A stretch of 64,000 nt of DNA. Origin: a virus. The translations under genes and the position numbers were made by a program. Under the pieces are notes generated by a model, which was not told the origin of the DNA, did no database searches, and was given only the letters and a program-made list of their open reading frames with translations. This document shows positions 55,728 to 60,408 of this stretch, one piece after another. The stretch lies in the IMG/VR virus record IMGVR_UViG_3300029319_000007; one strand, given 5' to 3'. Numbering within the stretch: the stretch's first letter is position 1; every line of letters starts with the position of its first letter.

Positions 55728-56546
55728 TTACTCCTCTATTTTAAATTGCCATAAGTCTTTTACAATACCCTCATGTATCATATTAAAGATAGCATGTTCG
55801 ATTGTAGTTCTTATGGCGTAATTAACCGGCTCATTAGTTGCGACACCGGTTTCTATTTCAAGTGCTTTTGTACTCATGTCAAGGAACCTGAATACATCAC
55901 CACCACTTGAATAACTTGCGATAGTCTTTGTTGCTGACACAGTAAGAACAATCTCACCTGTCTGTACTGCAACAAGTCTTAACGAAACTGTTACCTGGTC
56001 TGTACGATATTGTTCACTTAATCCAATGCCAAAATATCTTGCGCCAACACCACCTGATGTAATGTTAGAATCATATCCTACAATACCACCCTCTACTATA
56101 AGTCCTGCAAACTTTAGAGGTTTTAATTGGTTTTTAACATCACTTTCACCATCATATAATTCTCTTGTTGATCTTATTAGTTGTCTTTCTTTTACAAGAT
56201 TATCTAAACCTTCTCTTTCTAAAACTATAAACCATGGTTCATTACCACCTACTGCTTTTAAACCATTGATAACCCATGTTTCAGGTCCTTGTGTCACAGC
56301 AGTTGATAATTGAGAAAACTTTACATTAGGTTTTCTTTGTCCTGTTCTATCAGGAAAATCATAAACTGCAATCGTAATTTGTGGTTGACCTAGACTAGGA
56401 ATATTTTTTAATCTTTTAATTGTATCTGTTTCAATAGTGTAAGGTGTTTCGCCTTGATAAACACCATCTATCTTTTGTGTTGAGGCACAACCCCCTAACA
56501 AGCATATGAGCAGCATTGCAGCCGCAATTTGTGGTACCATTTCCAT
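55728..56546 (-). CDS. csgG: Curli secretion channel CsgG
   Basis: Lipobox LLGGC; IAVYDFPDRTGQRKP, STAVTQG, LEREGLDNLVKERQLIRSTR, EGGIVGYDSN..GGVGARYFGIG, DQVTVSLRLV. Confidence 0.95.
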   Translation of the reverse strand: MEMVPQIAAAMLLICLLGGCASTQKIDGVYQGETPYTIETDTIKRLKNIPSLGQPQITIAVYDFPDRTGQRKPNVKFSQLSTAVTQGPETWVINGLKAVGGNEPWFIVLEREGLDNLVKERQLIRSTRELYDGESDVKNQLKPLKFAGLIVEGGIVGYDSNITSGGVGARYFGIGLSEQYRTDQVTVSLRLVAVQTGEIVLTVSATKTIASYSSGGDVFRFLDMSTKALEIETGVATNEPVNYAIRTTIEHAIFNMIHEGIVKDLWQFKIEE

Positions 56547-56547
56547 A

Positions 56548-57018
56548 TTAAAATTTAAAGTCGCCTACTGGCACAGACATTGTTGTTGTTGAACCGTCTG
56601 GTGATGTAATTGTTAATGTTATTATTTCTGTTGTTGTATCTTTAACCCAATAGATTGTAGAACCTTCTACTTCAGCAGTTCCTGATGTTGGGCATGTACC
56701 CTCACATTCTGTGCCAAACATATTATCAACTAACTGTTTTGATAAATTAGCATAGATACGACTTTCAACATTCTTTATAAACTTGTTGATTGTGGTATTA
56801 TTTTCTTCACGCTTCGCTGCCGCTTCCGCTGACTTCTGATCGTCTTTAATACCTTTCTCTCTACTGTATCTTAATTGTTCAAGTGATAAGACATGTGTGC
56901 TGTATCCATTTCCTGAGAAAGAAGGATTTGAAAATTCATGTACAATTTCACTTGCAATGCTAGGTGTCGATAACACATAACAAAATATTCCTAGCACTAA
57001 TATTTTTAGTGCTTTCAT
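56548..57018 (-). CDS. csgF: Curli assembly factor CsgF
   Basis: Signal peptide, then SEIVHEFSNPSFSGNG (CsgF N-terminal FxNPxFxG motif); adjacent to csgG. Confidence 0.85.
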   Translation of the reverse strand: MKALKILVLGIFCYVLSTPSIASEIVHEFSNPSFSGNGYSTHVLSLEQLRYSREKGIKDDQKSAEAAAKREENNTTINKFIKNVESRIYANLSKQLVDNMFGTECEGTCPTSGTAEVEGSTIYWVKDTTTEIITLTITSPDGSTTTMSVPVGDFKF

Positions 57019-57740: not shown

Positions 57741-58649
57741 TTATTGGTTAACTAGTTTACTAAAGTAATTCATAGTATCGTCTTCACCTTCATCACTAGG
57801 GGAGGTTTGAGTAGGTAAAGTAGGTTCACTTACTTCAGGTGTGTCACTAACTACTGCTTCAGCACTTACAGGTGGGATGTCTATTTCATCTGCTGTAGCA
57901 GTTTTTCCAGAACCGTAAACAACTTTCTCAAATTTAATTTTGAGAGCGTCATAAGACTTGAAGTTTGTTGGTGCTGAAAACTCTTTCAATGAATATTGTT
58001 TTTTCCACAATGATTCAATGTAATCATCATCTTCGTTTATCTTTGAAGAATTTTCAAATTCAGATTTGTCATAGTTCCAATAACCATCAACTTTTCTAAT
58101 CTTTAACTTGAAGTTTGCCCCAGCCCAAAAATCAAATGGATTGATTGCTTGTTCGTCTGCAAATTCAGGTTTCATTGCTTCTGTAATCTTATCAAAGATT
58201 TTTTTACCAAACTTGTATAAGAATATTTTACCCTCGTTCTCAGGATGAGCAGGGTCTGAAACAACTAAGATGTTTGTATAGTAAGATAGTTTTCTTTTTC
58301 TTTTTCTTGCGATCTCTTTGTCTGCGTCAGAACCAGTATTCCAAAGTTTACTGTTTTCTTCACTTACAGGATCTTTTTGACCAAGTGTTGTTAAACTATT
58401 TTCAATGTACCAACCGCCAGGTCCTTGAAACGCATGTGACCATACTCTTGCCCATGGTAATTCTTCTCCTTCTACAGCAGGTAAAAAACGAATAACTGCA
58501 TAACCATTACCAGTTTTATCTAGTTCAGGTTTCCAGAATCTATTGTCGTCTGATGAGTTGTTGTTAGTTGTAGGTTGTGTGACTTTTTCTAACTCTTTGG
58601 TTAGTTTATCGAAGTTGCCACGACTTCTCTTTAAATCTGCGAATGACAT
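57741..58649 (-). CDS. gp32: ssDNA-binding protein gp32
   Basis: DNRFWKPELDKTGNGYAVIRFLP, HAFQGPGGWYIENSLTT, FGKKIFDK, NYDKSEF, acidic tail. Confidence 0.97.
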   Translation of the reverse strand: MSFADLKRSRGNFDKLTKELEKVTQPTTNNNSSDDNRFWKPELDKTGNGYAVIRFLPAVEGEELPWARVWSHAFQGPGGWYIENSLTTLGQKDPVSEENSKLWNTGSDADKEIARKRKRKLSYYTNILVVSDPAHPENEGKIFLYKFGKKIFDKITEAMKPEFADEQAINPFDFWAGANFKLKIRKVDGYWNYDKSEFENSSKINEDDDYIESLWKKQYSLKEFSAPTNFKSYDALKIKFEKVVYGSGKTATADEIDIPPVSAEAVVSDTPEVSEPTLPTQTSPSDEGEDDTMNYFSKLVNQ

Positions 58650-58721
58650 ATTGTCTCCTTTGTATTCGTTGTATTCGTATAAATTGTATATTATTATATA
58701 TACAAGTTTTCACCTTGATCA

Positions 58722-58953
58722 TAAAAAAAATTTATCATTCAGCCCTTCGTGGGATTTGCTGGGAAGCGTACCCACAATTTTTCAGGAAGAGTCCCATGTT
58801 CTTTTGAAGATAGGTCCCTACTAGTAATCTGCCCCTTAGTGTCTTGAGCCGTTTGGCCACTACCCTCTAAGAAACAAACTTTATGCCCTCTTAAGCATTG
58901 TTCAGTCAGAAGGAAACACGGTTTCGAACCCATGTTCTGCTGCTGAATGATAA
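58722..58953 (-). ncRNA. Candidate ~220-nt structured ncRNA of unknown class
   Basis: 12-bp terminal stem TTATCATTCAGC/GCTGAATGATAA, internal G-U-containing helices, upstream TTGACT-17-TATAAT promoter, downstream U8 tract. Confidence 0.7.
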
Positions 58954-58957
58954 CTCT

Positions 58958-58986
58958 ATTATACATCATTTCGTGCTAAAAGTCAA
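58958..58986 (-). promoter_or_regulatory. sigma70-type early promoter
   Basis: TTGACT-17nt-TATAAT with an extended TG. Confidence 0.8.
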
Positions 58987-59833
58987 GCCCTAAATGTGTA
59001 TAAAACTCATTTTTTTTCATATAAGATAGATTAGGTAAACTATCCCATTGAGGCATTCTCTCAGATATCTTATTATTTTCATCTGGATTTACCTTAATAA
59101 ACTGTATGTCTTTATATCTCACCATAACTCTACCCATTTGAACAACCCAATTTTGTGGTGTTATGGCACTCTCATCTGAGGACACATAACCATGTGTCTC
59201 TTTGTATAAATTATTAATAAAATCTGTTGTACTGTACATATCCATACCTATGAGATAACATGTTTTAGGTTTCTCTACTTTACATGATATGTACATTGCT
59301 GTCGCACCTGATGACCAACCTGGATCATCTGGTCCAGCATTATCTGCTTCCCAACCTACACCGTAATAGTCATTCATTATATCTTTTAGTTGTGTAATAT
59401 TTTTATCTGCAAGACCATAAGTCCATGTGATATAAACATTTTCAAAACCATCACCTTTCCATCTATCGTTAGGTCTGTTTTGATTTACTGTTTGTTGACC
59501 ATGTATTACAAAATGTGTATAATAGTTCTCTGGTGTATATTTCCATTCTCTTATTGTAGGATTTGTCATATTAGAAGTTTGTGCCTCTTTCATCATTTCA
59601 TATTGATCAGCAGGCATATCTTCCCAATCTCTAAAATAAACTTTGTTTTCATCACAATATCCACTACGATATATTTCGTGTGTCATCATTGGGTCAACTG
59701 CAATTAAACCATCTACTGTATGTTCTCTAAAAAGAGCATTACAACCCCATACTTTACCTTTTGCTTTTAGTAATTCTACATCTATGTCTTTACGACTTTC
59801 ACCATTTCCTAATACAAATAAATTTTCTGTCAT
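58976..59833 (-). CDS. Sialyltransferase/Maf-like (GT-A-type) sugar transferase; likely start 59833
   Basis: LFVLGNGESR..WGCNAL..AVD..SSGATAM..YLIGMD; ATGA overlap with the gp59 stop. Confidence 0.6.
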   Translation of the reverse strand: MTENLFVLGNGESRKDIDVELLKAKGKVWGCNALFREHTVDGLIAVDPMMTHEIYRSGYCDENKVYFRDWEDMPADQYEMMKEAQTSNMTNPTIREWKYTPENYYTHFVIHGQQTVNQNRPNDRWKGDGFENVYITWTYGLADKNITQLKDIMNDYYGVGWEADNAGPDDPGWSSGATAMYISCKVEKPKTCYLIGMDMYSTTDFINNLYKETHGYVSSDESAITPQNWVVQMGRVMVRYKDIQFIKVNPDENNKISERMPQWDSLPNLSYMKKNEFYTHLGLDF

Positions 59834-60408
59834 AACATTTTTTTCAGATTTAGTTTCATTCTTTCTTTGTTGTATGTCAAGAAAGGTCCATACTTTTTTA
59901 TTTTTCTGTTCAATGTCGGCCATATTATAGTTTCCTTTATTTGTTTACTAAAATTTTTTGTGTAGTTTAATAAATTGTCTAATATACATAAAGTTTCTAA
60001 TGATATTCTTTTTGCAAGATATGTTTTAACAAGAATAGGATGTTGACCATTATTTACTTTAAATATCTTATTAAAATTTTGTTCACTTTTTCTCATCAAT
60101 TGTTCAATGTCTCTTTCAAAATAATAAGTCAAACCGTCAATTCTTTTTTGTCTATCTAAATAAACCTCATTGTTCATATCCTTAATATAAGGAGATTTAT
60201 TATGGACGAAATTGCTAACAAAGTAATCAACAAGATTATCGCCATACTTTCTTGCAACCTTAACAAAAAAATATTTGTCATTGCGTTGTATAAATGTTTC
60301 GAACTTAGCATTAGTTTCACCATTATACTTAAAAAAATCGTATTCATCTTTCGTAAAATGTAATTTAATCCCAAGATATTTTTTGTATGCTTCATATCCT
60401 TCATTCAT
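59830..60408 (-). CDS. gp59: Helicase loader gp59
   Basis: YEAYKKYLGIKLHFT..YDFFKYNG..RNDKYFF..ISLETL..KKYGPFL. Confidence 0.9.
   Translation of the reverse strand: MNEGYEAYKKYLGIKLHFTKDEYDFFKYNGETNAKFETFIQRNDKYFFVKVARKYGDNLVDYFVSNFVHNKSPYIKDMNNEVYLDRQKRIDGLTYYFERDIEQLMRKSEQNFNKIFKVNNGQHPILVKTYLAKRISLETLCILDNLLNYTKNFSKQIKETIIWPTLNRKIKKYGPFLTYNKERMKLNLKKML

Follow-up and report, generated by a model that had tools for sequence, protein, structure and literature searches.

A candidate manA-family RNA of pelagiphages with a dedicated early promoter and sequence signs of self-association

The manA RNA (Rfam family RF01745) was put forward in 2010 as a candidate riboswitch of marine and cyanophage origin that occurs in 5' UTRs of diverse genes, with a structural model that marks a "pseudoknot?" (Weinberg et al. 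2010, PMC2864571), and has been an orphan under that label since. According to a 2026 cryo-EM preprint, which is not peer reviewed, several manA RNAs assemble in vitro, as RNA only, into a 60-subunit icosahedral cage, decamers, or octamers; their building blocks are pentamers held together by kissing loops between molecules and by a GNRA-receptor contact, with interfaces that vary by variant (Ren et al. 2026, bioRxiv 10.64898/2026.07.01.735769). The structured RNAs ROOL, GOLLD, and OLE also form RNA-only homo-oligomers (Kretsch et al. 2025, PMC12286853) and provide a functional analogy to a self-assembling phage RNA. However, they are far larger, have other architectures, and showed no sequence or model similarity in an Rfam search to the RNA described here. 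The motif called manA-II (PMC11109978) was considered as well and is an unrelated Leptotrichia motif.

In this study, we analyzed a 64,000-nt stretch of viral DNA (IMG/VR record IMGVR_UViG_3300029319_000007), referred to as the window. The segment flagged in its initial annotation is a genuine gene on the minus strand, and its product is a folded RNA about 230 nt long. For the 6 kb around the RNA, the best match was Pelagibacter phage HTVC008M, with 72% nucleotide identity, and the gene order was the same as in that phage, the curli genes csgF and csgG included. The window thus comes from a T4-like pelagimyophage and, as judged by this comparison, its source is a relative of the Pelagibacter (SAR11) phage HTVC008M. 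The gene downstream of the RNA, and outside the RNA itself, encodes gp32, the single-stranded DNA-binding protein (positions 57741 to 58649, minus strand). Its product shares 82.5% protein identity (tblastn) with HTVC008M gp32, annotated in that record as single-stranded DNA binding protein. About 30 nt past the gp32 stop codon, a terminator-like hairpin of conventional type with 13 pairs and a T-rich tail was observed (57710 to 57680, minus strand). Downstream of gp32 lie two genes for curli secretion, csgG (272 aa) and csgF (156 aa), at 55728 to 57018 on the minus strand, an arrangement also seen in HTVC008M and Melnitz. Directly upstream of the RNA is a 315-aa ORF (58979 to 59923, minus strand) that had been labeled a sugar transferase. 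This label is not supported by our searches: a Pfam search of the ORF returned no domain, and its assignment is PHROG 30607, a group of unknown function. Farther upstream, a 192-aa ORF encodes the gp59 helicase loader.

Copies of the RNA were collected from IMG/VR by two routes. A set of 80 gp32 loci yielded 13 full copies and one partial copy, and the RNA was absent from about 50 of the approximately 65 loci with sufficient upstream sequence. Using a pattern of three invariant motifs, at least 120 viral contig stretches were retrieved, which gave 93 distinct full-length copies; 91 of these were aligned (alignment A3) and used to build a covariance model, R1. The window and HTVC008M have a single copy each, in both cases at the corresponding position ahead of gp32, and none was found in the OM43 phage Melnitz. 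When the same pattern was applied to 185,579 bacterial and archaeal species, each represented by one genome, only four Paenibacillus stretches were returned. None of them matched R1, so they represent chance matches and no cellular copy was found at this stringency.

Most copies are positioned 66 to 700 nt upstream of gp32 on the same strand, with downstream neighbors that vary among copies and include gp32, a 50-aa ORF, peroxiredoxin, rubrerythrin, and genes of unknown function. The peroxiredoxin gene (Redoxin/AhpC-TSA) was found between the RNA and gp32 in about 15 copies (L105, L166, L111, and about 12 more), with its ribosome-binding site 10 to 30 nt after the terminal helix of the RNA. 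In one relative, rubrerythrin takes its place (L183:1603-2025); both are peroxide-detoxifying cargo genes in the same hot spot. Divergent copies (L164:2579-2802, minus strand; L120) reside on contigs that encode an endolysin and a DNA polymerase of family-A type and that lack gp32 in the 1.5 kb downstream of the RNA, so the RNA family reaches past gp32-linked myophage loci. No tRNA arrays were seen beside the RNA at 20 copies checked, the divergent ones included. Permuted (two-piece) tmRNA genes were observed 0.4 to 3.4 kb upstream of the RNA in two relatives (L159:4007-4321 and L158:5806-6133).

The RNA is preceded by a sigma-70-type promoter (58958 to 58986, minus strand), and the arrangement proposed initially was confirmed. 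TTGACT (58986 to 58981) and TATAAT (58963 to 58958) are separated by a 17-nt spacer and agree with the consensus at 11 of 12 positions. Transcription is expected to start at approximately 58952, which corresponds to the foot of a terminal clamp helix, P0, whose 5' arm comes about 7 bases after the promoter. A promoter of the TTGAC[AT] type (16- to 18-nt spacing, TAnnnT) is situated directly upstream of the RNA in 72 of the 91 distinct copies; a dedicated sigma-70-type (early) promoter is thus kept in relatives.

The terminal stem is likewise present as described. On the minus strand, the 5' arm of P0 (UUAUCAUUCAGC, 58953 to 58942) and its 3' arm (GCUGAAUGAUAA, 58743 to 58732) form 12 perfect pairs that join the RNA ends and leave 198 nt between the arms. 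The relatives maintain an end-to-end helix of 4 to 17 contiguous base pairs, built from 56 different arm sequences. A U8 tract (58723 to 58730, minus strand) follows after a single A and is terminator-like only if P0 is taken as the hairpin; a terminator pattern scan of the window, with stem loops of 3 to 8 nt, did not report P0 plus U8 with its 198-nt loop. A U-run after P0 was found in 11 of 91 copies, and the rows listed with one all belong to the window's subclade. Hence, the U8 reported earlier exists, whereas its reading as a terminator is confined to this subclade. The RNA segment is also richer in G+C than its surroundings, as had been noted, with 0.44 over positions 58735 to 58964 versus 0.30 to 0.39 in the flanks. 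On the 3' side of U8, an AU-rich spacer containing TATATATA (58695 to 58702, minus strand), a ribosome-binding site, and gp32 (58649 to 57741) follow in this order. The motif TATATATA aligns with the T4-type late promoter TATAAATA of HTVC008M and likely serves gp32 as its late promoter. In 42 of 91 copies, TATAWATA is found no more than 45 nt past P0. Depending on the clade, P0 is followed by a late promoter of the TATAAATA type and gp32, by a ribosome-binding site and the 50-aa ORF, or by other genes.

The minus strand folds with -78.2 kcal/mol (z = -5.2), and none of 200 shuffled sequences folded as well; the corresponding z-score for the plus strand was -1.6. To evaluate the fold in relatives, 43 proposed pairs were counted on alignment A3, which comprises 91 distinct copies from IMG/VR marine viral contigs. 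Standard pairs were formed in 97.3% of the cells, compared to 33 to 47% when the partners were slid by 1 to 3 columns. Compensatory change on both sides was detected in 28 of the 43 pairs versus 8 to 16 with slid partners, and the covariation score was 0.50 versus 0.10 or less. None of 500 shuffles matched the observed pairing and covariation values. The same helices were found independently by RNAalifold and are backed by covariation. Taken across the alignment, covariation strongly supports the proposed fold, in line with the original suggestion of a structured RNA. The strand is fixed by a G-U pair between columns 110 and 121, which occurs in every distinct row (89 of 89). P0 and the first hairpin, P1, were examined sequence by sequence because both are poorly aligned by MAFFT.

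Inside P0, the P1 hairpin (58914 to 58937, minus strand) has an 8-bp stem (58937 to 58930 with 58921 to 58914) and carries the self-complementary UUCGAA (58928 to 58923) in its loop. In relatives, the P1 stem mostly measures 8 to 11 bp and has many different sequences. These stems are better described by RNAfold than by symmetric extension from the palindrome, which undercounts them since many loops are 7 to 8 nt long with the palindrome off center. The core that follows (58744 to 58913, minus strand) is closed by a junction stem, CCUUC (58913 to 58909) with GAAGG (58748 to 58744), which encloses sub-domains P2, P3, P4, and P5. Compensatory change is seen at each of the five pairs in this stem, which is the counterpart of the bracketed outer stem in the Rfam manA model.

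Within the core, the P2 domain (58878 to 58906, minus strand) consists of P2a (58906 to 58904 with 58880 to 58878) and P2 (58898 to 58895 with 58886 to 58883), with the signatures CUGAACAA and UAAAG on either side of the domain. Pairing reaches 100% at the four positions of P2, each of which covaries. The P3 domain (58829 to 58876, minus strand) is a long stem (58876 to 58864 with 58841 to 58829) topped by an apical hairpin, P3 (58858 to 58855 with 58850 to 58847); its internal loops, GAGGGU and AAGACAC, are invariant. In the P4 domain (58784 to 58818, minus strand), GGGACC (58818 to 58813) pairs with 58794 to 58784 around a variable apical hairpin, and the bulge CUCUU is found at 58791 to 58787. 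Pairs 150/151 with 188/189 of P4 change from GG/CC to CC/GG in 12 to 13 copies. The P5 hairpin (58749 to 58775, minus strand) pairs GUGGG (58775 to 58771) with CCCAC (58753 to 58749) and harbors the UUGUGGGUA ... AAUCCCAC signature common to manA.

Most of the inner helices of the initial annotation, namely, AACATGG/CCGTGTT (P1), ATGC/GCAT (P2), GGCC/GGCT (P3), and GTGGG/CCCAC (P5), were borne out by covariation. One was not: the pairing of CCTTCTGA with TTAGAGGG is not supported, and the CCUUC of the junction stem pairs with GAAGG instead. The repeated AGAACATGGG does occur twice on the minus strand, in the 5' arm of P1 (58938 to 58929) and in the 3' arm of P4 (58802 to 58793). It is not kept in relatives, and the repeat is probably a coincidence.

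Our Rfam search of the window reported no family at the gathering threshold, RNase P RNA included, and ARAGORN found neither tRNA nor tmRNA in the window. This agrees with the initial impression that the segment does not resemble any of these three RNA types. A reading of the segment as tRNA, tmRNA, or T-loop was rejected on the ARAGORN result; moreover, the T-arm-like GGUUCGAAACC corresponds to UUGCAA in most relatives. With permissive settings, Rfam returned a single meaningful match, to manA, which covers model positions 1 to 192 with 23.6 bits (E = 4e-4). The gathering cutoff of RF01745 is 55.2 bits, and the RNA is thus no manA member by Rfam's own criterion. The HTVC008M genome showed a manA match of 25.9 bits at the homologous position, also below this cutoff, whereas bona fide cyanophage manA copies score 97 to 186 bits on the Rfam model. 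In the reciprocal direction, R1 was run on five cyanophage manA loci. It matched the Rfam-confirmed manA at the exact coordinates in all five, as the top match in four, with weak scores of 23.8 bits for P-RSM1, 23.0 bits for P-SSM4, 16.5 bits for P-SSM2, 12.7 bits for P-HM1, and 9.9 bits for S-CREM1 (E values of 2e-5 to 0.11). A blastn search of the region against 50,697 phage records yielded no match, and a blastn search with the S-CREM1 manA found only itself. Nucleotide searching is too insensitive for a manA-type family.

The architecture points in the same direction as the model searches. Both RNAs belong to marine T4-like phages and are approximately 190 to 230 nt long, and both start with a 5' hairpin, after which a junction stem surrounds P2-, P3-, P4-, and P5-like sub-domains in the same order. 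Common signatures are UG(A/G)CUGAAYAA, UAARG, and the UGUGGGUA...AAUCCCAC hairpin, and the succession of CUGAAYAA, a hairpin, and UAAGG is seen in both. Among the 91 copies, CUGGCUGAACAA, UAAGG, and UUGUGGGUA...AAUCCCAC are conserved or nearly invariant; their manA counterparts are UGaCUGAAUAA, UAAgG, and UGugGGUA...AAUCCcaC. Gene callers have annotated small ORFs over RNAs of both types.

The two types also differ. The middle domain of manA is a stem with three hairpins and the motifs GGUGGUG and AACC..ACCA, whereas that of the pelagiphage RNA is one long stem-loop with invariant GAGGGU and AAGACAC, and the Rfam alignment over this domain has low posterior probability. The P1 loop is GACG in five of five bona fide manA copies and UGCA, UCGA, or GUAC in 91 of 91 pelagiphage copies. 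With both the middle domain and the P1 loop differing, the core fold may differ too. The end-to-end clamp P0 and the dedicated sigma-70-type promoter are extra features of the pelagiphage RNA. Carriers of manA are cyanophages, while the pelagiphage RNA is carried by relatives of a SAR11 phage. On the basis of architecture and reciprocal similarity, we consider the RNA to be a distant, uncatalogued pelagiphage branch of the manA family. The initial assignment to an unknown class does not stand, given the full-length, if subthreshold, manA hit, the reciprocal R1 hits, and the shared domain order and signatures. The match to a known Rfam family, named at that stage as grounds for refutation, was thus found in weak form, below the gathering score. 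Among bona fide manA copies, that of S-CREM1 (L082:1633-2002) directly adjoins two tRNAs: a single base separates it from tRNA-Leu, and it overlaps tRNA-Asn by one base. This arrangement suggests release by tRNA-processing enzymes. In P-HM1 and P-RSM1, the manA RNA is found after the major head gene.

Three sets of loop nucleotides in the pelagiphage RNA show patterns that bear on RNA-RNA contacts. The P1 loop contains the self-complementary tetranucleotide UGCA, UCGA, or GUAC in every copy, usually as part of a palindromic hexamer (UUGCAA or UUCGAA; UGUACA and CUGCAG once each). Its central dinucleotide is GC in 66 copies, CG in 24, and UA in one. On a quick tree made from the short core sequences, with recombination ignored, the center of the loop switched at least 17 times, and no nonpalindromic intermediate was present among the 91 copies. 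The bases of the palindrome are unable to pair within their own loop, and their self-complementarity is kept, which fits a two-fold loop-loop contact. Alternatively, the self-complementary loop could serve another purpose.

The second set involves P3, where GU in the 5' flank (58860 to 58859) covaries with AC in the loop (58852 to 58851). Columns 108 and 117 are AU in 80 copies and GC in nine, and columns 109 and 116 are UA in 60, CG in 17, and GC in 12, so that all of them are paired. These pairs cross P3 with zero-nucleotide linkers, which is sterically implausible in one molecule. We therefore infer that the contact is intermolecular, with the P3 loop and flank of neighboring copies pairing in such a way that the neighbor's P3 helix would be extended. 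In the third set, the P2 loop AAGAG (58892 to 58888; AAGNG in relatives) can pair with the P4 bulge CUCUU (58791 to 58787; CNCUU). The sole variable position of this contact is AU in 65 copies, CG in 16, and UA in eight, with no exception. The contact might form inside a single molecule, as a pseudoknot, or link two molecules. Cage formation has been seen in vitro for bona fide manA RNAs, whereas the pelagiphage branch is known from sequence. Of the roles proposed in the initial annotation, that of a scaffold is suggested to be nearest to the manA preprint and to the loop covariation.

We hypothesize, with a probability of roughly 55%, that this gene yields a free-standing early RNA whose copies bind one another. 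Its transcription by host RNA polymerase would begin at the conserved sigma-70-type (early) promoter, at about the foot of P0. The clamp joins the 5' and 3' ends, and P1 and the junction stem with its four sub-domains are arranged inside it in the manA order. Self-binding of the free-standing molecule may resemble that of manA RNAs in vitro. Three contacts would contribute: a two-fold kissing interaction of self-complementary P1 loops, pairing of the P3 loop with the P3 5' flank of a neighboring molecule, and pairing of the P2 loop (AAGNG) with the P4 bulge (CNCUU), be it intra- or intermolecular. In the window's subclade, the transcript would be ended by P0 and U8. In other clades, the RNA would make up the 5' part of a longer early transcript, in which it may be retained or from which it may be cut off. 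The differing downstream neighbors and the divergent copies in other phage types argue for a free-standing over a regulatory RNA, as does the S-CREM1 manA located between tRNA-Leu and tRNA-Asn. A more far-reaching proposal, which we advance tentatively and which may well turn out to be wrong, is that self-assembly of this compact, early, end-clamped manA-type RNA is under natural selection in SAR11 phages and that oligomers or cages exist and matter in vivo. Traces of this selection would be the P1 loop, which stayed self-complementary over at least 17 GC/CG switches, and the covarying flank-loop pairs of P3.

The absence of a U-run from most copies (80 of 91) means that transcription should run into the next gene, which also fits a 5' leader. 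In this view the RNA acts in cis, as a leader or riboswitch; it would form the start of the early mRNA that carries gp32 and the cargo genes and would control read-through, with P0 and U8 as a conditional terminator, or stability or translation. The position of the promoter does make the RNA the 5'-most part of the transcript, most copies precede gp32 at the distances given above on the same strand, and many have a ribosome-binding site and ATG 10 to 30 nt after P0 (those of peroxiredoxin in about 15 copies and rubrerythrin in one). The original proposal of manA as a riboswitch candidate in 5' UTRs (PMC2864571) also agrees with such a role. However, a riboswitch combines a conserved aptamer with a platform that occludes a terminator or a ribosome-binding site of the downstream gene. 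After the pelagiphage fold, 11 of 91 copies have a U-run and 42 of 91 a late-promoter-like motif; elsewhere, a ribosome-binding site lies beyond the conserved structure. No expression platform is conserved, the sequence after P0 depends on the clade, and the downstream genes are functionally unrelated. The late-promoter-like motif between the RNA and the gp32 start codon would give gp32 a promoter of its own, and most gp32 relatives (about 50 of about 65) do without the RNA. Bona fide manA copies between tRNAs or after the major head gene, as well as divergent copies from other types of phage whose downstream 1.5 kb is free of gp32, are difficult to reconcile with a leader function, which also leaves the crossing pairs and the palindromic loop without a role. 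We regard this explanation, the main alternative to a free-standing RNA, as unlikely, yet as one to be taken seriously.

In phage T4, gene 32 mRNA is autoregulated via a pseudoknot in its leader. By analogy, the pelagiphage RNA might be an operator that nucleates gp32 binding and represses gp32 translation. As in T4, a structured element is found upstream of gp32 and is followed by a conserved, AU-rich, unstructured leader. The T4 element is, however, a small pseudoknot within the gp32 mRNA, whereas the pelagiphage RNA is a 230-nt multidomain structure with its own promoter that is missing from most gp32 relatives and present beside other genes. In many copies, other genes intervene between the RNA and gp32, and some phages carry the RNA with no gp32 within 1.5 kb downstream. 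The late-promoter-like motif downstream of the RNA would keep it out of the late gp32 mRNA, and the RNA has kin in manA RNAs from unrelated contexts. Taken together, autoregulation of gp32 through this element appears highly improbable.

A 76-aa ORF overlaps the RNA (58739 to 58969, minus strand), and the initial annotation had named purifying selection on it as evidence against the RNA reading. No sign of coding was detected, and it was judged to be no gene. Its ATG falls within the -10 hexamer region of the RNA promoter, and the frame aligned to it contains 2 to 10 stops in all 90 other copies. Length differences among copies are distributed 36:31:23 modulo 3. For the first, second, and third codon positions, column entropy averages 0.60, 0.47, and 0.63 bits, without a third-position excess; it amounts to 0.70 bits in paired versus 0.35 bits in unpaired columns. 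This concentration of variation in paired columns is an RNA signature rather than a protein signature. About half of the copies do have a stop-free frame of at least 60 codons, and gene callers place small ORFs here, such as HTVC008M gp008, but the C-terminal halves lie in differing frames between copies; the notion that the stretch encodes a 76-aa protein and that its fold is incidental is very improbable. The 56-aa hypothetical protein gp008 of HTVC008M (L001:3796-3966) overlaps the manA-type RNA, and the hypothetical proteins P-SSM4 169.1 (L203:1585-1758) and P-HM1 121 (L205:1506-1682) overlap bona fide manA RNAs. All three are probably spurious gene calls, and small hypothetical-protein annotations over manA-type RNAs can be flagged accordingly. 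The probability not taken up by the free-standing, leader, operator, and coding readings falls to other roles.

The RNA described here is a real, uncatalogued manA variant and not a wholly new class. It extends the manA family to phages related to a phage of SAR11 (Pelagibacter), the ocean's most abundant bacteria, and shows a manA-type RNA that forms a unit of its own, clamped from end to end and preceded by a dedicated early promoter. It also offers sequence-level signs of selected RNA-RNA contacts, which are testable by simple mutations. Since HTVC008M and its host are both cultured and the phage carries one copy, the RNA can be studied in a real infection. If selection for self-assembly is indeed at work, these patterns would be the first evolutionary, as opposed to in vitro, evidence that manA-type oligomers or cages exist and matter in vivo, and they would point to the contacts to mutate.
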